Assembly (NCBI GenBank): GCA_963702005.1
Contig: OY969696.1
Span: 1,792,001 to 1,856,000, forward strand
Source of the DNA: Candidatus Aminicenantes bacterium
GTDB taxonomy: Bacteria > Acidobacteriota > Aminicenantia > Aminicenantales > JAFGBC01
Length of the DNA: 64,000 bases
Direction of reading: 5' to 3'
In this document: piece by piece, positions 2,758-57,006 of the stretch
Layout of the letters: each line of letters opens with the position of its first letter
How positions within the stretch are numbered: the stretch's first letter is position 1
Translations under genes and position numbers: made by a program
The notes under the pieces: model-generated
Databases searched by the model: none
The model's input: the letters and a program-made list of their open reading frames with translations, nothing else
What the model was told of the DNA's origin: nothing

Positions 2758-2927
2758 AAAAACTTAAGGAGTAGGGGAGATTCAGCGCCGCGAGCGGGCA
2801 TTCATTGCTTCACGAAAAAAACAACTTTTTCTATCTCAAGCCGACCAGCTGGGCGCAATTTAATGTGGCTCAGCCGGGGTCCCGGGGAATTGAATCACCC
2901 CAATTTTCTTCAAATAAGGAGGGGACG

Positions 2928-5722
2928 ATGAAGCCGTTGAGAATGATCCTCATGGGGAGCCTGATTGTCCTGCTCCTTTTCTCGGGGATTGCCTATGGAG
3001 CGGCTTGGGTGACCAAGAGGCTTACGACAACCTCGGGCGATTCGGGGAGCCCGAAGATCGCCGTCGACGGCTCGGCGGTCTATGTCGTCTGGACGGACGA
3101 TACGCCGGGAAATGGCGAAATCTACTTCCGGAAATCGTCCGATGGGGGAGTCGGCTGGCAAGCGGCGCAAAGACTCACCACCAATGTCGGTGACTCCGAG
3201 TCTCCGGCGATAGCCGTCGACGGCTTGAACGTCTATGTCGTCTGGGAGGATTCGACGCCGGGGATCGCCCAGATCTATTTCATGAAGTCCCAGGATGGAG
3301 GAAATCACTGGAAGGCCGCACGCGCCCTGACGGAAAATAAGACGGCGAAAGCGGGAAAGCCGGCCATCGCCGTCGTCGGCGCGAATATCTATGTGGCCTG
3401 GCAGAATGACGAGAGCGCCAAGGGAGGAAATTGCGGGGTCGCCTTGACGAAATCCGCCGACCGAGGAGCCGGTTGGCAGGCCGCTAAAACGCTCTCCGGG
3501 AATACGGGGTCTGCCGACGCCAAAAACCCGGCCGTCGCCGCCGCCGACTCGGGCGTCTATGTCGCCTGGGAAGAGAACACGGCCGGAAACAACGAGATCT
3601 ACTTCAGGAAATCGACGAGCGGAGGCGCCGCCTGGGAAGCTCCCAAGAGACTCACCACGAATTCGGGTTCCTCCAATTCTCCGGCCGTCGCCGCCATGGG
3701 CTCAACGGTCTATATCGCCTGGAGCGACGCCACGCCGGGGAATCCTGAGATCTATTTCCGGGAATCCGCCGATCAAGGAGCCACCTGGCAGCCCGGTTTG
3801 AGGCTCACCAATAATTCAGGCCGCTCCGAGGCTCCGGCCCTGGCCGTCAATGACTCAAGCCTCGATGTCGTCTGGAACGACGACACGCCGGGAAACATGG
3901 AGATCTACCATCGGCAGTCGACGAACGGGGGAGGCGCCTGGCGGGAAATCGAAAGGCTCACGAATAATTCCAGCACTTCCCGCGGCCAATTCCTGGGGGT
4001 CGGGGGCTCACAAATCTTCGTCGTCTGGCAGGATCTGACCCCGGGCAACAATGAAATTTACATCATGCATAAGAAGCCGGATATGAGTCCGATCTCCATA
4101 ATTTTACCGAACGCCTCCTCGGTCTGGGTCATGGGCACGACGGAGAAGATCAAATGGAAGATCCCCGAGGGCCTCGCCGGTCAAATCCATGTGGCGTCCT
4201 CGACGGATGTCCCGGCTATCGATAACGTGAAAATAGATTTGTATAAGGGGTCCACTCTGATCAAACCGATCGTCGCGGAAACAAACGCCGGCGCGGGGGC
4301 ATATTCATGGATGGTCCCGGCCGGCCTGGCGGACGGAACGGATTACATGGTTCGAATCTCGAACTCGACGGACGGCAAGGTCTATGAGGACAGCCCGCTG
4401 TTCGAAATCAGCGGCACGCCGCTCCCGGACCTGATCGTGTACAGCCTGACGCACAGCCCGGCAAACCCGACGATTTTGAATACGATCACGATAACCGCCG
4501 TTGTCAAGAATGTCGGCACGGCTCAGGCCGGCGCCTCGACCCTGCGTCTGAGTGTCGCCTCAGTTGATACGACCCCCACTATTCCCCTGCTTGCGGCGGG
4601 CGCCACAGCAACCGCAACTCGGACCGTGGGGCCTTTGGCGGTCGGAACCTATACGGTGACGGCGGGGGCGGACGACAGCCAGGTGGTTACGGAGTCGCGC
4701 GAAACGAATAATACCGCCGAGGATAGCTTCGTAGTGACCGGGCCGGACCTGATCGTGTATAGCCTGACGCACAGCCCGGCGAACCCAACGACTTTGGATC
4801 AGATCACGGTGACCGCTATCGTTAAGAATATCGGCACGGTTCAGGCTGGCAATTCAACTCTGCTTCTGAGCATCGGTGGCAGTGGTGGCTCGCCTAACTA
4901 TACTCCCGCGCTTGCGGCGGGCGCCAGCGCGACGGTAACCCGGACCGTGGGGCCTTTTTTACCGGTCGGGACCTATCCCGTAACGGCATGGGCTGATGGT
5001 ACCCATGTGATCGCGGAGTCGGACGAAACGAACAACTCCTTGGAGGACAGCTTCTTAGTGATCGTGCCGCCGGACTTAATTATTCAAAGCCTGACGCACA
5101 GCCCGGCGAACGCGACGATGGCGGATAAGAACACGGTCACCGCCGTGGTCAGGAATGCGGGAGGGTCAACCGCCGGCGCCTCGACTTTGCTATTAAGCGT
5201 GGGCGACCTGAAATCGAAAATGGACGTCTCTAAGCTCGCGGCTGGCACAACGTCGACCGTAAATTGGAACGTAGGGCAGTTGTGGACCGGCACGTACACG
5301 ATCTCAGCGACAGCGGACGTCGCTAACGTGGTTGCGGAGTCGGTCGAAAACAACAATACAAAAATTATCTCCGCCTGGATCGCGCCTGCTCCGGACTTGG
5401 CGCCGTCGCTGAGCTACTATATAATCAATGCCAATGGAACAAATTGGTTCATAATAAGTCGGGTGGTAAACAACTACGGGCCCGGGGACGCCCCCTCGTC
5501 ACGGCTCGAATGGTGGAACGAAGACCCTAAGGGAGGATCATATGGGGGAGGGGGGGAGACTATGAGATCGGTCCCGTGGCGGCAGGCAAGCTCTATTACT
5601 TTTATCAATATTTGCTTTTTGATCAAATGGCGCCCGGAACTTGGGTTTTCACCTTGCATTCGCACGGAGTGTCCGAATGGAAATATACTAACAATACGGC
5701 CACATTGACATATATCAAATGA
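2928..5722 (+). CDS. Secreted BNR/Asp-box repeat + CARDB multidomain protein, frameshifted in a G7 tract near the 3' end
   Basis: Signal peptide after AAGGAGG RBS; repeated IYFRKSxDxGxxW; three PDL...E.NN CARDB repeats. The fourth continues in another frame after G5550-5556, ending at TGA 5720-5722. Confidence 0.85.
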
Positions 5723-5786
5723 GGATCGTCCTTCTACGGATAAAGAACAGATCTGCGCTTCGATAAAAAGTAGGAGTGGGGTCAAG

Positions 5787-5843
5787 CCTACACTTTGGCA
5801 CTAAGTGCAAATTGTCATTTTGTACGTTTTGCCAAGGTGTAGG
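5787..5843. repeat. Inverted repeat between convergent genes (REP doublet or terminator-like)
   Basis: CCTACACTTTGGCA ... TGCCAAGGTGTAGG, 13/14 complementary, 29-nt spacer. Confidence 0.55.
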
Positions 5844-5873: not shown

Positions 5874-7994
5874 TTAACGAGCGTCCTTAGGTTTCGCCGA
5901 TTTTGAGGGCGGTGAAACTTTCGCGACAATAGCATCAAAACCGCCGCGATTCGTTTTTTGAAAAGCATCTTTGGTCGGGAAATTGACGCTCTTAGTGCCC
6001 CCCGTCAGATAGGCTGCGCCGCCGCCGTCCAGAGCCACTTTCGTGCCGTAATCATCGGCCGTCCCGCCCAGATAAGTCGAATAGACAAGACCTTTTCCGG
6101 TCGGGGATAGGTTCGTTATGAATAGGTCATATTTTCCCCGATTCGTTTTCTGATAGGCGTCCTTGAGGGGGAAATTCTTGCTGCTGGTGCCGCCCGTCAC
6201 CCAGGCTGCTCCCGTGCCGTCGACGGCGATGCCGCCGCCAAAATCCTCGCCGGTCCCACCTAGAAAAGTGGAATATTCAAGAGTTTGACCGGTCGAGGAG
6301 AGCTTGGTGACAAAAGTATCGACATTGCCACGATTCGTTTTCTGAAAGGGAGTCTTGGTCGGGAAATCGGTGCTCCCGGTAGCGCCCGTCACGTAGGCCG
6401 CGCCGCTGTTATCGACGGCGATACTATAGGCAAAATCCATATCCTCCCCTCCCAGATAGGTTGAAAAGACAAGGCCTGTGCCGCTCGCGGAGAGCTTTGT
6501 GACAAATGCGTCAGCCCCCCCTTGCCCCGAGACGTTCTGATAAGCATTCTTGACGGGGAAATTCTTGCTGCTGGTGCTGCCTGTCACATAGGCCATCTTC
6601 TTAAGATCTACGGCGATTCCGAAGCCGACATCATTGTCGGCCCCGCCCAAAAAGGTGGAATAAACGAGCGCTTGGCCGGTCGGGGCGAGCTTCGTTACAA
6701 AGGCATCGAGTTTTCCGTGATTTTTTTTCTGGCAAGCTACCTGGGTGGGAAAATCGGTGCTCCAGGTTTCACCTGTGACATAGGCCGCTCCATCGCTGTC
6801 GACAGCTATGGAATTGGAGGTATCCGAATTGGCCCCGCCCAAATAGGTGGAATAGTCGATGGCCTGTCCGGACGGGGCGAGCTTCGTCACGAATCCATCG
6901 CCTCCGCCGCGATTCGAATTCTGAAAGGCATTCTTAACCGGAAAATTGGGGCTTAAGGTCGATCCCGTAACGTAGGCCGCCCCGTCGCCGTCTACGGCTA
7001 TGCCCTCGCCGTCCTCATTGTAGCGCCCGCCTAGGTAGGTGGAATAGACAAGGCTTTTGCCGCTCGGGGACAGCTTGGTGATGAAGATGTCATGCGTGCC
7101 GCCGTTCGTTTTCTGGCAGGCTGTCTTCATGGGAAAGTTCGTGCTGTCGGTTTCGCCCGTAACGTAAACCGCTCCAAGGCTATCCGCGGCGATCGCCCCG
7201 ACAATTTCGTAATAAGAACCGCCGAAGTAATCGTTCCCCGACCCGCCCAGGTAAGTGGAATAGACCAGGACGACGGGGTCGATGATTAAATCATAAGCGG
7301 GATTGAAATCCTTAACGCCGAATCCATATTCATCTTGTCCTATCCGTTTAAAAGCGGCTTCGACCTCAACACGTTTGCCCCCCATCGTCTGATAGCCTGT
7401 CGGCTTGCGATGCCTGAGCTCGCCAAATGTGCCCTCAACGATCAAATCTCCTTCTTTATCTATCCTCGTCGCTTTCAGGCCGCTGTATTTAAGGCGGAGG
7501 CTGTCAAGCTTTCCGCCGGGCTTAATGATCCAGTCATATTCAATCTGTCTTTCCAGGCCATAGACCTCGAGGTCGATATTCCTGTAGATATTTTTATACA
7601 AGACCGCGTTCGATGCCGGGATGCCTGTCCGCCATTGAGAGGGGTCGTTGCCGATAAAATAGCTCACCCGGCATTCCGTCGGCTGATAGGGCACAAGTTC
7701 GACATCTTTATTGGCGTTCAGGAAGACCAGGCTTGATATATCCCGCTCGAATTCCGCTTCTCTCTTTATGGCATCAAAAACCAGTCCCTCTTTCGTCATC
7801 CATAGCGTATACCCTGAAGCCTTGGCATAAAACAGCGCTTCGCTGTCTGCTTGTCCCTGGTTGGGTATAAAATAGAGCGGGATGTTCCCATAATCGGGTT
7901 CGGGTATCTTCCCGCTTTGCCTTATTTCACCCGCCATGGAAACAAGGAAAAGGCCAAACGTCAGCAACCCCAAGCCTACCATAAATCTTTTCAT
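5874..7994 (-). CDS. SBBP (beta-propeller) repeat secreted protein
   Basis: Signal peptide, FIPNQGQ N-domain, repeated YSTYLGG..D.G.GIAVD..G.AYVTG.T.S.NFP. Confidence 0.9.
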   Translation of the reverse strand: MKRFMVGLGLLTFGLFLVSMAGEIRQSGKIPEPDYGNIPLYFIPNQGQADSEALFYAKASGYTLWMTKEGLVFDAIKREAEFERDISSLVFLNANKDVELVPYQPTECRVSYFIGNDPSQWRTGIPASNAVLYKNIYRNIDLEVYGLERQIEYDWIIKPGGKLDSLRLKYSGLKATRIDKEGDLIVEGTFGELRHRKPTGYQTMGGKRVEVEAAFKRIGQDEYGFGVKDFNPAYDLIIDPVVLVYSTYLGGSGNDYFGGSYYEIVGAIAADSLGAVYVTGETDSTNFPMKTACQKTNGGTHDIFITKLSPSGKSLVYSTYLGGRYNEDGEGIAVDGDGAAYVTGSTLSPNFPVKNAFQNSNRGGGDGFVTKLAPSGQAIDYSTYLGGANSDTSNSIAVDSDGAAYVTGETWSTDFPTQVACQKKNHGKLDAFVTKLAPTGQALVYSTFLGGADNDVGFGIAVDLKKMAYVTGSTSSKNFPVKNAYQNVSGQGGADAFVTKLSASGTGLVFSTYLGGEDMDFAYSIAVDNSGAAYVTGATGSTDFPTKTPFQKTNRGNVDTFVTKLSSTGQTLEYSTFLGGTGEDFGGGIAVDGTGAAWVTGGTSSKNFPLKDAYQKTNRGKYDLFITNLSPTGKGLVYSTYLGGTADDYGTKVALDGGGAAYLTGGTKSVNFPTKDAFQKTNRGGFDAIVAKVSPPSKSAKPKDAR

Positions 7995-11865: not shown

Positions 11866-11977
11866 GTGACCCGTTCGCCGACGCCAAGCCCCGCCTTTCA
11901 AGGCGGGGATGAGAGCGAGGCTCAGGGTTAATCATAAACAAGCCCCGGCCTTCAGGCCGGGGAGTCGATGATTTGAC
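11866..11977 (+). mobile_element. Non-coding TGAC-bounded hairpin element, copy A
   Basis: GTGAC|CCGTTCGCCGACGC-CAAG-CCCCGCCTTTCAAGGCGGGG...GAGGCTCAGGGTTA...CAAG-CCCCGGCCTTCAGGCCGGGG-AGTCGATGATTTGAC; homologous to four other copies. Confidence 0.75.
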
Positions 11978-12055
11978 ACGGGGATGGGTTTATGCAAAAA
12001 ATATCGAAAGCCATATATATTGATTAATGAAAATAAAAAGTGAGATAAAAAGGGC

Positions 12056-12796
12056 ATGAGAAATGAAAACCAACCCGATCCTGCTATTTTAAAGAAAAAA
12101 CTGGATATCAAGCTTCCGCTCATCGGATTTTATGATGCGCCCGATCCGGCCATATTCGAACCCCTCGTCACGCCCAAGAAAAACGACTGCGTCTTCTCAT
12201 TCTACAAGAACTGGCTTCAAGGCGAGACTCTCTCCAGCACCAGGGAGAGTTACGGCTGCGGCGGCGCCGGCAGTTGCTTATGGGGAATCCAGGCCAGGTC
12301 GAGAAAGGAGTTCATCAAGTTCCTTGCCGATGATGAAGGTCTCAAGGTCTCGGGCGAGCTTATGGAGAGATTCATCGATTCGACAACGTCCTACCGAGCC
12401 GAGAACGCCCACATTTTCATCGGGCCGCTCAAGGAGGAAGGCTGGCCATACGTCAAGACAATCACTTTTCTTGTCAACCCTGATCAGCTAAGCGCTTTGA
12501 TGATCGGCGCGCAGTATCACAGCGCCCCCGAGGACCCGCCTCCAGTATTAGCGCCCTTTGGCTCAGGCTGTCGCGAGCTCATCCCTTTCAAGGACTTCAA
12601 TGGGCCTCAGGCTTCGATCGGCGCGACTGACATCGCCATGCGTCAACACTTACCACCTGACATCCTCGCATTTACCGTCACCAAGCCGATGCTCAGCCGG
12701 CTCTGTAAACTCGACGAAAGAAGCTTCCTCTACAAGCCTTTTCTGCTACGTCTCCAGAAAGCTCGCGGCGCCACGCTCTTTCGCGATCCAACGTAA
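12056..12796 (+). CDS. DUF169-like protein
   Basis: Cys motifs (DCVF, YGCGGA, FGSGC), VNPDQLSAL, IGATDIAMR. Confidence 0.7.
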   Translation: MRNENQPDPAILKKKLDIKLPLIGFYDAPDPAIFEPLVTPKKNDCVFSFYKNWLQGETLSSTRESYGCGGAGSCLWGIQARSRKEFIKFLADDEGLKVSGELMERFIDSTTSYRAENAHIFIGPLKEEGWPYVKTITFLVNPDQLSALMIGAQYHSAPEDPPPVLAPFGSGCRELIPFKDFNGPQASIGATDIAMRQHLPPDILAFTVTKPMLSRLCKLDERSFLYKPFLLRLQKARGATLFRDPT

Positions 12797-30351: not shown

Positions 30352-31263
30352 ATGTCCAAACGATTCCTAATCGTTTTAATGATCGGCGCGGCTTTCCTCG
30401 CTTCCTGCGCCGTAGAAACCCGCGTCTCCGACCTTATAGAAATGCTGCCCGGTCCGGCCGACTCGGACGCCTGGGTCCGAAAAGGGGAGCCCCAGGTCTT
30501 CGCCGGCCGGGAGCTGTTCACCTACGTTGACGGCGGCGCCGATATCTACCTCGAATACGGATTCCGGAAGGTCCTTGTCCAGGACTACGAGAGCCGGGCC
30601 GGCAAGACCATCTCGGCCGAAATTTTCGAGATGGCGGATCCGGGCGCCGCTTTCGGGATGTACGCGTTCAAGAAAGGCAGCAAGGGCCGCGAGCTGGGGA
30701 GCGAAGGGCGCGGTCAGCTCGAGGATTATTATCTCAACTTTTGGAAAGGGCGCTATCTGGTCACCTTGACCGGCTTCGATTCCGACGGGGAGACGCTCGT
30801 CGGGCTCGAGACGCTGGCGCGCGCGGCCGAAGCCCGGATCGAGGGCGCCGGGCGTAGGCCTCGTTTCCTGGATACGCTTCCGGTCCGGGACATGATCAAG
30901 CCGAGCTTGAGCTACTTTCGCGGACCGCTCGGCCTGAACGCGGTCTATACGCGGATTTCGAGCGAGGTTCTGGGATTCAAGGAAGGGGCGGCGGCCGACT
31001 ATGACACCGGGATAAGCTTCATCGTCCTCCGCTACCCAAACGGACGGACCTCGCGGGCGGCGTTCGAGCGGCTGCGAGCGGCCTTGTCCGATCCGGCCAG
31101 GTTCTTTGAATTTCAGGATCTGGCGGACGATCTGGCGGCCGCCTCCGACGGAAAGGGGGCTTCTCTCTACACGATGCCGCGCGGCGATCGCCTCTGGATC
31201 GTGAGAGGCGGTTCCCCCAAAATAATCCGGTCGTTCCTGGCCGGCCTCCGGAACACTCGTTGA
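30352..31263 (+). CDS. Putative lipoprotein (DUF6599-like)
   Basis: LASC lipobox; LFTYVDGGADIYLEYGF; EIFEM..P..AFGMY. Confidence 0.7.
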   Translation: MSKRFLIVLMIGAAFLASCAVETRVSDLIEMLPGPADSDAWVRKGEPQVFAGRELFTYVDGGADIYLEYGFRKVLVQDYESRAGKTISAEIFEMADPGAAFGMYAFKKGSKGRELGSEGRGQLEDYYLNFWKGRYLVTLTGFDSDGETLVGLETLARAAEARIEGAGRRPRFLDTLPVRDMIKPSLSYFRGPLGLNAVYTRISSEVLGFKEGAAADYDTGISFIVLRYPNGRTSRAAFERLRAALSDPARFFEFQDLADDLAAASDGKGASLYTMPRGDRLWIVRGGSPKIIRSFLAGLRNTR

Positions 31264-31402
31264 CCCGTTCGCCGACGCTACCCCGCCCTAGAAGGCGGGG
31301 CTAAAAATCGGAGCCCCGCCTTTCAAGGCGGGGATGAGAGCGAGGCTCAGGGTTAATCATGAACAAGCCCCGGCCTTCAGGCCGGGGAGTCGATGATTTG
31401 AC
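31260..31402 (+). mobile_element. TGAC-bounded hairpin element, copy B
   Basis: TTGAC at both ends; as copy A plus an extra hairpin CCCCGCCCTAGAAGGCGGGG. The terminal TTGACA is 17 nt from TATCCT. Confidence 0.8.
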
Positions 31403-39864: not shown

Positions 39865-40323
39865 CGCTTCGCAGCGATCGACGTTCCGGGCCGGGCGCCG
39901 CTCTTGAGGCGGCCCCGGCCTTTCTTTTTCGCGGGGCAGGGGATGGAAAAATTCTTTCCATGCCTGTAAAAAAATAGGGGACATGTTCGTCCCCCGCCGC
40001 GATTCCCGATAATCCTTGCCTGTCCGCGGCCGATTCCCTGCCCGGCGCCCTGGTATGATTCTTGCCTATCCAAGGGTGATCGGAATCCTCATGGCATCGA
40101 GTCCAATATTTTGGAATCAAGAAGCGAGGAGGTCCCATTGAAAAAAGCGTGCGTTTTGTTTATGGCACTGGCTCTGGCCATGGCCGCGCCGTTCGCCGTC
40201 GCCTCGATTCAAGACCTCTCGAAAGCTTTCGAGAACGGCGAAATCGATAAGATCCTCAAGATGCTCGACGATGACCCGCAATTGCTGAAGGCCGACATGG
40301 GCGCGGGCATGACGCCCTTGCAC

Positions 40324-40929
40324 GAAAGCTTTACAGGCTGCCCCGTGGCTTGCCACGGGGTGGAATGTATGCCTTGCCGAGGGGGTGATAAGGGGGACCG
40401 GAAAGTCCCCCTTATCCACAAAGGCCCTTGCTCGGGAGTGTGGTAAAGTATATGGGTGACGCTGAAACGGACGAGTCATTCGGTCTACGACACGTCCTAC
40501 CATCTGGTCTGGTGTCCGAAGTACCGGAAGAAGATATTCGAGCGGGTGGAAGTCCGGGAACGAGCGAAACAGATCGTGGGAGAGATTTGCGAATCGTACG
40601 ATATTGAAATCATCGAGATGGAAATTACCGAAGATCATATTCATTTGCTAGTATCATTTCCGCCATCGCGATCGATCGGGGAGGTCGTCAGGATCATAAA
40701 GAGCATGAGTGGGAGGGGGTTGTTTCGCGAGTTTGCGGGCTTGAAAAAGAAGCTGTGGGGCGGGGAAGTGTGGGAGGACGGATATTTCGCAAGGACGGTC
40801 GGAGACCGGATGACGAGGGATGTGATCGCGAAGTACATCGTCAGTCACCGAGAACTGGAGCAAGGGCCTGCGCAGCTGGCCTTGAAGCTGCGCTCCTAAT
40901 GCCCCGCGGCTTGCCGCGGGGATCTTTAC
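40324..40929 (+). mobile_element. IS200/IS605-family IS (tnpA only), 606 bp, copy 1
   Basis: Subterminal hairpins CCCCGTGGCTTGCCACGGGG and CCCCGCGGCTTGCCGCGGGG; inserted after TGCAC, ends TTAC, no target duplication. Confidence 0.95.
40456..40899 (+). CDS. tnpA: Y1 HUH transposase
   Basis: YHLVWCPKYR, DHIH, WEDGYF..TVG, IAKYI. Confidence 0.95.
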   Translation: MTLKRTSHSVYDTSYHLVWCPKYRKKIFERVEVRERAKQIVGEICESYDIEIIEMEITEDHIHLLVSFPPSRSIGEVVRIIKSMSGRGLFREFAGLKKKLWGGEVWEDGYFARTVGDRMTRDVIAKYIVSHRELEQGPAQLALKLRS

Positions 40930-42607: not shown

Positions 42608-42681
42608 TTGACCCATTCGCCGAGGCTCAGGGTTACCCCTATACAAGCCCCCGCTTGATAACCGGGTGTCGAGGGGTTGAC
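42608..42681 (+). mobile_element. TGAC-bounded hairpin element, copy C (shortest)
   Basis: TTGAC|CCATTCGCCGAGGCTCAGGGTTA...CAAGCCCC...GTCGAGGGGTTGAC; terminal TTGACA-18 nt-TATTAT. Confidence 0.7.
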
Positions 42682-52922: not shown

Positions 52923-53323
52923 TAGCCAAGAAGGAATAATGAATCAACGCTGTAGGCGATAGGTTATTAAGCGAACAGCTTCCGGTCTGCGCAACGCAGA
53001 TCGCTCTCGTCATAGTAGGGATCGGCCCAGTTGCCATCGCTGGATAAGAACCAGCCCGCGGCTTCCGCCTGCTCCTGCTTTGAAGGAGATGCGGTTTTAG
53101 CGGACTTGGCTTTTTTGGCCATCGTTGACTGGCGATCGAGAAAATCGAAGTGGTCCACGAGGGCAATGGCTTCTATGGCGAATACAGTGGCAATATCATT
53201 GTCGTGGATCGCAATGAGATTATCCCCGTTTTTTTGTTCTCCCAAGAGGGCCAGGTTGGATGAGCCGCAATAAACCACTGGGTCCTGGCCGCTGAACCCG
53301 CATACGACGAACTTATGATGCAC

Positions 53324-53929
53324 GAAAGCTTTACAGGCTGCCCCGTGGCTTGCCACGGGGTGGAATGTATGCCTTGCCGAGGGGGTGATAAGGGGGACCG
53401 GAAAGTCCCCCTTATCCACAAAGGCCCTTGCTCGGGAGTGTGGTAAAGTATATGGGTGACGCTGAAACGGACGAGTCATTCGGTCTACGACACGTCCTAC
53501 CATCTGGTCTGGTGTCCGAAGTACCGGAAGAAGATTTTCGAGCGGGTGGAAGTCCGGGAACGAGCGAAACAGATCGTGGGAGAGATTTGCGAATCGTACG
53601 ATATTGAAATCATCGAGATGGAAATTACCGAAGATCATATTCATTTGCTAGTATCATTTCCGCCATCGCGATCGATCGGGGAGGTCGTCAGGATCATAAA
53701 GAGCATGAGTGGGAGGGGGTTGTTTCGCGAGTTTGCGGGCTTGAAAAAGAAGCTGTGGGGCGGGGAAGTGTGGGAGGACGGATATTTCGCAAGGACGGTC
53801 GGAGACCGGATGACGAGGGATGTGATCGCGAAGTACATCGTCAGTCACCGAGAACTGGAGCAAGGGCCTGCGCAGCTGGCCTTGAAGCTGCGCTCCTAAT
53901 GCCCCGCGGCTTGCCGCGGGGATCTTTAC
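53324..53929 (+). mobile_element. IS200/IS605-family IS, copy 2
   Basis: Matches copy 1; the only difference I saw is synonymous A40536/T53536. Inserted after TGCAC. Confidence 0.95.
53456..53899 (+). CDS. tnpA: Y1 HUH transposase
   Basis: Protein identical to copy 1. Confidence 0.95.
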   Translation: MTLKRTSHSVYDTSYHLVWCPKYRKKIFERVEVRERAKQIVGEICESYDIEIIEMEITEDHIHLLVSFPPSRSIGEVVRIIKSMSGRGLFREFAGLKKKLWGGEVWEDGYFARTVGDRMTRDVIAKYIVSHRELEQGPAQLALKLRS

Positions 53930-56197: not shown

Positions 56198-56294
56198 TTA
56201 ACCCGTTCGCCGACGCTACCCCGCCTTTCAATACACATGAGCCGTTTCCGGTTCATGAGTGCCGGCATTCATGCCGTGGAGTCGAGGGTTTGAC
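56198..56294 (+). mobile_element. TGAC-bounded hairpin element, copy D
   Basis: TTAAC|CCGTTCGCCGACGCTACCCCGCC...GTCGAGGGTTTGAC; shares an internal unit with copy E. Confidence 0.7.
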
Positions 56295-56673: not shown

Positions 56674-57006
56674 TTGACCCGTTCGCCGACGCTACCCCGC
56701 CCTTAAAGGCGGGGCTTAAAATCGGAGCCCCGCCTTTCAAGGCGGGGACGAGAAGCGACACTTTTGTACTCAGCCCCTTTAGAGGAGATGGGGCTGAGTG
56801 GGCTCAAGGTTAACCCCGAACAAGCCCCGGCCTTGCAGTACTCATACTAAGCCGGAAACGGCTTAGTATGTGTGCCGGCATTCATGCACTCATGAACCGT
56901 TTCCGGTTCATGAGTACTGGCGCTCCAATGAGCATTAGTCCGTGGAGCTTCGGCCGGGGAGCAGCCTTGCAGCACTCATGGCTTCCATGAGTGTCGAGGG
57001 GTTGAC
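56674..57006 (+). mobile_element. TGAC-bounded hairpin element, copy E (longest, multiply nested)
   Basis: Copy B scaffold with at least four extra G(T/C)ACTCA-initiated hairpins; terminal TTGACA-17 nt-TATATT. Confidence 0.8.

Follow-up and report, generated by a model that had tools for sequence, protein, structure and literature searches.

A gene-less repeat ending in TTGAC in Candidatus Aminicenantes is probably a non-autonomous single-strand transposable element that inserts without target duplication

Among the closest described systems are the insertion sequences (IS) IS608 and ISDra2. IS608 is cleaved at TTAC and TCAA and carries the guide tetranucleotides AAAG and GAAT 5' of its hairpin feet; the left site lies 19 nucleotides (nt) before the left hairpin, outside the IS, and the right site 10 nt after the right hairpin, inside it (PMC3201880, PMC5934647). 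For IS608, ISDra2 and relatives, a bias to the lagging-strand template is reported (PMC5027513). Here we describe a short repeat, copy A, in a 64,000-nt stretch of a Candidatus Aminicenantes genome (the window; contig OY969696.1, positions 1,792,001 to 1,856,000 of the forward strand), together with its relatives, the TTGAC family. Coordinates are those of the window unless called genome positions, and a slash within a sequence marks a junction. Judged by its sequence and that of its relatives, copy A is probably a non-autonomous transposable element of the IS200/IS605 single-strand ('peel-and-paste') type. The insertion mode of the family matches IS200/IS605 on every feature testable here. 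A preliminary description of the window had read copy A as an IS605-type element with guides; the insertion signature, the strand bias and the fit of copy A itself uphold this, whereas the guide rule fails at most ends of the family.

Copy A has no gene of its own and consists of the following parts.

11866..11870, plus strand: left flanking pentamer GTGAC (family consensus TTGAC), target and presumed left cleavage site, outside the mobile unit and kept in the empty allele
11871..11977, plus strand: copy A body, the mobile unit, 107 nt, delimited by empty-allele contigs in 4/4 metagenome runs and by near-identical 107-nt copies
11871..11884, plus strand: conserved left terminus CCGTTCGCCGACGC, common to all subfamilies
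11885..11888, plus strand: CAAG, candidate left guide, the 4 nt directly 5' of the foot of hairpin 1
11889..11908, plus strand: hairpin 1, CCCCGCCTTTCAAGGCGGGG, that is CCCCGCCT-TTCA-AGGCGGGG, from folding as single-stranded DNA
11939..11942, plus strand: CAAG, candidate right guide, directly 5' of hairpin 2
11943..11962, plus strand: hairpin 2, CCCCGGCCTTCAGGCCGGGG, that is CCCCGGCC-TTCA-GGCCGGGG, from folding as single-stranded DNA
11963..11977, plus strand: conserved right terminus AGTCGATGATTTGAC, ending in TTGAC
11974-11977, plus strand: TGAC, candidate right cleavage site, inside the element as the last four bases of the body

CAAG thus stands before both CCCCG...CGGGG hairpins, as had been described, and the TGAC that the preliminary description placed at the left boundary is 11867-11870. 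Folded as single-stranded DNA, copy A forms both hairpins, each with an 8-bp stem and a 4-nt loop, at -31.9 kcal/mol (z = -4.0; 0 of 200 shuffles as good). The pentamers at its two ends differ, GTGAC on the left and TTGAC on the right.

To delimit the family we searched the host genome (G000; one contig of 4,309,361 bases) with a regular expression for the left and right termini. This gave 121 paired hits, six of which had neither a family interior nor a TGAC flank and were removed by eye, leaving 115 complete elements of 63-356 nt; flank and position counts were taken on all 121 hits. Flank positions -5 to -1 are T in 94, T in 116, G in 111, A in 114 and C in 120 hits, with no conservation upstream of -5. 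Body positions 1-11 (CCGTTCGCCGA) are kept in 116-121 hits, the final five bases are TTGAC in 106 (113-118 at each position), and the first base after the element (+1) is A in 46, T in 58, C in 15 and G in 2. Internally the elements are mosaics of interchangeable hairpin modules, and all forms share only their 14-16-nt termini; 14 of the 115 copies lack a perfect stem of at least 6 bp, and the 63-81-nt forms have a single hairpin, often of other sequence. Copy A belongs to a 107-nt form of which 14 of 16 genome copies lie within 0-2 nt of the consensus, copy A itself differing by one. Terminal inverted repeats are found neither in copy A nor in the family. We also considered pairing between the conserved termini or across a circle junction and rejected it: by eye it amounts to weak GTCG/CGAC and GGG/CCC matches, which are lost in the GATGATTTGAC variant.

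Comparison of filled and empty sites defined the mobile unit. In a congener, G001, 350 kb were sampled and 22 elements found, and both flanks of a few of these matched adjacent places in G000. Three clean pairs resulted, each filled in G001 and empty in G000. The first reads CCTTAC/108 nt ending in TTGAC/TTCATCG against CCTTAC/TTCATCG; the second, AAATTGAC/108 nt/AGAG... against CAAATTGAC/AGGGGAACCCGATTCGAGTATAAAAG; the third, GTTAAC/element/TCCCATTCG against ATCAAC/TCTCACTCG. For copy A, an empty allele was found in 4/4 wetland-metagenome runs from three studies, in one contig per run, the evidence being assembled contigs and not raw reads. This allele joins 11870 to 11997 and reads GTGAC/ACGGGG..., with exactly 11871-11977 absent and a 17-base variant in place of the 19 bases 11978-11996; the flanks further out are nearly identical, and the bridging contigs of two runs have 1-4 letter differences from the window in the flanks that they cover. 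When the orthologous locus of copy A was sought in G001 and G002, the repeat alone matched and the flanking genes did not. Because the empty sites lack exactly the body, the mobile unit is CCGTTCG...TTGAC, the left (T)TGAC belongs to the target and stays behind, and nothing is duplicated. The TTGAC family has moved recently. Four tandem genome copies already carry TTGAC/CCGTTCG or TTGAC/CCATTCG junctions.

These data bear directly on whether copy A might be an ordinary miniature inverted-repeat transposable element, mobilised by a DDE transposase that duplicates a 5-bp TTGAC target. TTGAC does stand on both sides of most copies (97 of 170 left-motif hits, chance hits included, and 106 of 121 right ends). 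However, the left pentamer differs from TTGAC in 29 of the 115 elements and the right pentamer in 9, and none of these 29 left variants recurs at the right end; together with empty sites free of duplication, the missing terminal inverted repeats and the replichore bias described below, this makes such an element very improbable.

We then asked how the copies are oriented relative to replication, as the preliminary description had suggested. After detrending, the cumulative GC skew is lowest at 505 kb and highest at 2755 kb of the genome, and dnaA lies at 504,097-504,579. The written strand of the element is the lagging-strand template in 96 of the 115 copies (p = 7e-14 against 0.5 and 2.5e-11 against 0.54). 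The count is the same with either pair of breakpoints used. Judged from copy orientation by itself, the switches fall at 460 and 2640 kb, and 99 of 115 copies then agree. Genes are co-oriented with replication in 54% of cases (rough calls from a simple codon-usage caller made for this analysis) and free intergenic TTGAC sites are split 973:974 between the strands, so the bias does not come from the orientation of genes or targets; it persists whether the downstream gene is co-oriented (79/91) or not (17/24). The IS200-like IS resident in the same genome has this polarity in 9 of its 11 copies. A second genome, G131, which belongs to another family of the order, behaves similarly: its contig C5 holds 18 of the 40 listed copies, with 6/6 on the minus strand up to 294 kb and 12/12 on the plus strand from 514 kb to 1.92 Mb, giving a single origin-type switch point, and dnaA is at 631 kb.

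The same data speak to another mechanism, in which a tyrosine, serine or IS110-type DEDD recombinase would join the core TTGAC of a circular element to a target TTGAC by double-strand site-specific recombination. Such a process would yield the same pentamer at both junctions, as seen at most copies, and an IS110-family IS is present in the genome. Yet free TTGAC sites are divided 50:50 and free promoter-like sites (TTGACW-N16-18-TANNNT) 54:46 (182:153), while 83% of the copies are strand-biased. Moreover, at CTTAC and at TCAAC/TTAAC targets the left junction keeps the letters of the target and the right junction keeps TTGAC, and the IS110 copies found are inserted in elements and have other ends. 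We regard this mechanism as distinctly improbable. The insertions in question are in three TTGAC elements (genome positions 2353910, plus strand; 3585181, minus; 3157374, minus), each split by an IS110-family IS of about 1.3 kb that encodes a 343-amino-acid protein with PF01548 and PF02371 and sits in a nested hairpin module.

TTGAC is the sigma-70 -35 consensus, and about half of the copies are found in promoter-like surroundings. Among the 111 elements that have no other copy directly after them, a TANNNT starts at flank offsets 18, 19 and 20 in 7, 27 and 21 cases, compared with 0-5 at the other offsets from 1 to 49. These three offsets correspond to a 16-18-nt spacer after TTGACW, so the terminal TTGAC precedes a -10 box at this distance in 55/111 copies. 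Loci of other genomes, from a scan of named records, give 2, 18 and 13 of 74 at the same offsets, and 19 elements of the G001 sample give 0, 3 and 0. One of the empty sites reads TTGACA-N17-TATAAA, the textbook form of a promoter. At copy A the end of the element falls within such an arrangement:

11973..12002, plus strand: promoter-like site with -35 TTGACA (five bases from the element, one from the flank), 18-nt spacer and -10 AAAAAT, 10/12 consensus matches
12056-12796: DUF169 gene downstream of this site

The filled locus reads TTGACA-18-AAAAAT and the empty one GTGACA-16-AAAAAT; the insertion turned GTGACA into TTGACA. Because about a third of the free intergenic TTGACW sites (335/914, where a site may count twice) also have a TANNNT at the same spacing, we take the link to follow from the target sequence and from the loss of insertions inside genes, with no extra preference for promoters. 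Two G001 insertions appear to lie in coding sequence, one (L019) corresponding to genome position 3630157-3630158 of G000 (CCTTAC/TTCATCG) and the other (L017) to about 3204340, just after the region of a start codon. With insertions within coding sequence, the family is therefore not confined to promoters.

A non-mobile regulatory module upstream of promoters, spread by duplication or gene conversion, would fit the 91 of 115 elements whose gene to the right is co-oriented. Against it stand the base-exact presence and absence of the element between near-identical strains and congeners, the copies within coding sequence (pairs e17 and e20) and near-identical copies at unrelated loci, and we find this explanation hardly credible.

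If copy A is indeed a single-strand element of the IS200/IS605 type, its movement may be pictured as follows. An HUH/Y1-type enzyme acting in trans would cut the top strand at two points, 3' of the flanking TGAC and 3' of the TGAC in which the element ends, releasing a single-stranded circle with the junction ...TTGAC/CCGTTCG..., which would be re-inserted 3' of a further (T)TGAC that a replication fork has exposed. In the subfamily of copy A, the CAAG 5' of each hairpin foot would probably pair with TGAC in the manner of the IS608 guides. Since TTGAC is the -35 consensus and the element ends in TTGAC, an insertion into a promoter puts a new TTGAC as far from the -10 box as the old one had been; such insertions would be tolerated and accumulate upstream of genes. 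Taken further, and only tentatively, one may suppose that in this gene-less family the -35 consensus has come to serve as both the left target and the right end. The family would then home into promoters and repair or improve the box that it splits, and the invariant termini, the exchangeable hairpins and a copy-rich genome lacking IS200-type TnpA would point to an unrecognised HUH enzyme that moves it by reading the termini. On this view, the lineages with GAAG and TCAC would amount to a natural retargeting experiment. We think this fuller account possible but doubtful.

The window holds four further copies of the family and two copies of the IS200-like IS.

31265..31402, plus strand: copy B body, 138 nt, left flank TTGAC at 31260-31264
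42613..42681, plus strand: copy C body, 69 nt, one hairpin, left flank TTGAC at 42608-42612
56203..56294, plus strand: copy D body, 92 nt, left flank TTAAC at 56198-56202
56679..57006, plus strand: copy E body, 328 nt, nested hairpin modules, left flank TTGAC at 56674-56678
40324..40929, plus strand: IS200-like IS copy 1, 606 bp, TnpA at 40456-40899, target TGCAC at 40319-40323
53324..53929, plus strand: IS200-like IS copy 2, 606 bp, TnpA at 53456-53899, target TGCAC at 53319-53323

Several details of the preliminary description were reproduced here. All seven elements, the five family copies and the two IS copies, share one orientation; the right-hand CAAG-CCCC recurs in copies B, C and E; copy C has no left hairpin; and 15 nt separate the right hairpin of copy A from the end of the element, as against 8 nt in the IS. 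The pattern CAAGCCCCG-N10-CGGGG with at most two mismatches has 12 matches in the window against 1.73 expected, a number that none of 100 shuffles reaches. Nested hairpin modules, for example ACTCATGAACCGGAAACGGTTCATGAGT and CAGCCTTGCAGYACTCAT...ATGRGTG, are seen in loops or arms of the CCCCG hairpins in copies D and E and in many genome copies, and the short forms of the family look like deletions between two such modules. No part of the window has a match in Rfam. Two long frames elsewhere in it, 2805-5708 (plus strand) and 5874-7994 (minus strand), consist of tandemly repeated units of 153/321 nt and 192 nt, and probably encode repeat-domain surface proteins.

The IS200-like IS encodes a 147-amino-acid Y1_Tnp protein (PF01797, E = 5e-40), and its 11 copies of identical length (two in the window and nine elsewhere in the genome) fix its borders independently of any guide. 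The target is TGCAC in 10 copies and AGCAC in one, and +1 is T in 10/11. Another repeat contains the target in five or six copies (TTGCAC/TTTGTGACAAAGTGTAGGTT). The starts of the two window copies are separated by exactly 13,000 bases, seemingly by coincidence.

In IS608, guide bases 1, 2 and 4 pair with site bases 2, 1 and 4, a map that fits both published pairs of guide and site. Applied to CAAG it predicts TGxC, which agrees with the TGAC at both ends of copy A, as the preliminary description had proposed. In the IS200-like IS, the left guide GCTG predicts GCxC, in line with the TGCAC and AGCAC flanks, and the right guide AATG predicts TTxC, the IS ending in TTAC. The rule thus fits both ends of the resident IS, in which the left site lies 17 nt from the hairpin foot, as against 18 nt in copy A. 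Across the family, guide base 1 (body position 15) co-varies with flank position -3. With C at this base, the flank has G in all but one of about 55 elements; with G (CGCGA...), the flank is TCAC in 6 of 13, including 4/5 in G000 and 2/6 in G001, compared with only about 9 of about 350 other elements (Fisher p about 1e-6 on a 6/7/7/318 table from an earlier tally of the same comparison). These tallies, made by hand, cover related genomes that may have some loci in common through descent. The left tetranucleotide, as seen at the empty sites, does not travel with the element, so the association of GAAG with TCAC must reflect target choice.

Other observations weigh against reading the family as IS200/IS605-type elements with guides and a Y1 enzyme. 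A rule-conforming guide beside a perfect stem of at least 6 bp is found at 23 of 115 left ends (25 if G-T pairs are allowed) and at 33 of 115 right ends (37 with G-T), and large near-identical subfamilies with GCTA/CCCCGCC or with TACT before another hairpin break the rule. The invariant parts of the family are the 14-16-nt termini and not the hairpins, which the IS608 model leaves unexplained. The covariation between guides and ends that the preliminary description had looked to is likewise partial: the GAAG elements with TCAC conform, whereas T at guide base 1 goes mostly with G in the flank but also with T (15 or more), A (8 or more) and C (6-7), and 7 of the 13 G-type elements, including the single cases in G005 and G164, still flank TGAC. 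Nineteen of the 115 copies have the opposite orientation. The ends of the elements (CCGTTCGCC...TTGAC, target TGAC) and of the resident IS (GAAAGCTTTAC...ATCTTTAC, target TGCAC) are unrelated. Nor was an autonomous parent found: left-to-right spans of 0.4-8 kb in G000 gave five cases, three of them elements split by IS110 and two, of 5.9 and 7.2 kb, not looked into, and no autonomous copy occurred in the loci fetched. IS200-type TnpA of at least 82% identity is present in G000, G001, G017 and G019 among 41 relatives, yet G017, with six IS copies, has no TTGAC elements. IS200-type TnpA is present in G000, G001 and G134 but was not found in G131, G145, G164 or G184, nor in G005, G013 or G025. 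The five contigs of G131 yielded no IS200-type TnpA, only weak RAYT-like Y1 matches.

The left-end 16-mer of the family occurs in 14 of 211 genomes of the order (at least 80% complete), all 14 in two families; in the named-record scan, 63 of 80 listed loci carry titles with Candidatus Aminicenantes, Aminicenantia or Aminicenantales, the rest being mostly single hits in unrelated taxa. G019, like G017, has no TTGAC elements. In G131 the family has at least 40 near-identical copies; the 12 of them that best match one query are within 0-2 nt of each other. In G000 there are 14 Y1_Tnp matches, namely the 11 IS copies and three longer proteins resembling REP-associated tyrosine transposases (RAYTs), whose best family is the RAYT model NF047646, all three below its cut-off. 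We considered the RAYT-like genes as owners of the family and rejected them, as the TTGAC family flanks none of the three. RAYT2-like genes are present in 22 of the 41 relatives, and RAYT3 was not found in G001. None of IS200 TnpA, RAYT2-like, RAYT3 and Y2 tracks the family across genomes. The IS200 TnpA would be favoured as the mobilising enzyme by the hairpin foot CCCCG...CGGGG that IS and elements have in common, and by recent bursts of both the IS and the 107-nt form at the same time in G000; G131 would speak against it as the only one.

The RAYT-like genes have repeats of their own. The gene at genome positions 713755-714726 is flanked on both sides by a repeat, TGCACTTTGTGACAAAGTGTAGGTTTGACCCC, found in the window at about 5750-5810 (genome position 1797796, minus strand) and in about 70 other places, mostly as inverted pairs and with no replichore bias; its part GGTTTGACCC resembles the junction of two TTGAC elements. 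The second gene (genome positions 2326423-2327082) is flanked by its own inverted-pair family, GAATTAAGTCGTGTGTCCCCAGAATT, present in 85 other places, and the third has private repeats.

Another HUH protein might instead read the termini, the likeliest being an IS91-like Y2 rolling-circle transposase. The IS91 family inserts next to a fixed tetranucleotide without duplication, so the outcome of insertion would be the same. Invariant termini beside variable hairpins would suit this view, as would the absence of IS200-type TnpA from G131; Y2_Tnp (PF04986) is found in all three copy-rich genomes (one 223-amino-acid frame in G000, 12 matches in G001 and one in G131) and in none of 14 control genomes. 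However, these Y2 frames are either fragments or short, G003 and G132, both without elements, carry Y2 fragments too, and no Y2 gene lies between element ends. In addition, the GAAG/TCAC association would be left unexplained, and we know of no replichore bias for IS91. We therefore hold a Y2 enzyme to be unlikely. The 223-amino-acid frame, at genome positions 4152795-4153148 (minus strand), has two Y2_Tnp matches with a gap in the profile between them.

If the single-strand reading is true, the family would be a natural case in which the cleavage and target sequence of a transposon coincides with a core promoter element. This would give a simple reason why hundreds of copies are tolerated beside genes, and promoter boxes in these genomes would be partly transposon-borne. 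The natural guide variants CAAG, TAAG and GAAG, with their different target spectra, could test the IS608 rule beyond the two model elements. The repeats also mark promoters and the direction of replication, which is useful in annotating these uncultured bacteria. We found no prior description of the TTGAC family in the literature, as judged at title level.

The family resembles IS608 and ISDra2 in lacking inverted repeats and target duplication, in inserting 3' of a fixed tetra- or pentanucleotide that stays in the flank, in having its right cleavage site inside the element, in the subterminal hairpins of copy A, each preceded on the 5' side of its foot by a 4-nt candidate guide, and in its +1 preference and lagging-strand-template bias (PMC3201880, PMC5934647, PMC5027513). 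The distance from left site to hairpin is also alike (copy A, 18 nt; resident IS, 17 nt; IS608, 19 nt), and the ISDra2 target TTGAT/G is one base apart from TTGAC/W. Unlike those elements, the TTGAC family has no transposase gene, its left and right sites are identical, as are both guides, and it combines exchangeable hairpins with strong conservation of the termini between site and hairpin; the right hairpin of copy A lies 15 nt from the end, and many members have no rule-conforming guide.

Three other kinds of element invite comparison. Palindrome-associated transposable elements (PATEs), gene-less derivatives of IS200/IS605, are likewise short, hairpin-bearing and presumably moved in trans. 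The ends of a PATE are also those of an autonomous IS in the same genome; the TTGAC family was rejected as a strict PATE, its ends differing from those of the sole IS200-type IS and no parent having been found in G000 or in the fetched loci. Repetitive extragenic palindromes (REPs), with bacterial interspersed mosaic elements (BIMEs) and REPINs, are also high-copy extragenic hairpin elements linked to Y1 enzymes, and G000 has three RAYT-like genes. We rejected this class too: members of the TTGAC family do not form inverted pairs, both their asymmetric ends and their target are fixed, and none of them flanks a RAYT-like gene. Hybrid promoters at IS ends are also comparable, in that the end of an element supplies the -35 hexamer of what looks like a working promoter. 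Here, unlike there, the -35 box is also the target, and an existing box is replaced (pair e0) rather than a promoter made by chance. Relative to the literature found, two features are new: the left target, the right end and the -35 consensus are one sequence, which would make promoter insertion self-repairing, and the termini, not the hairpins, are dominant.

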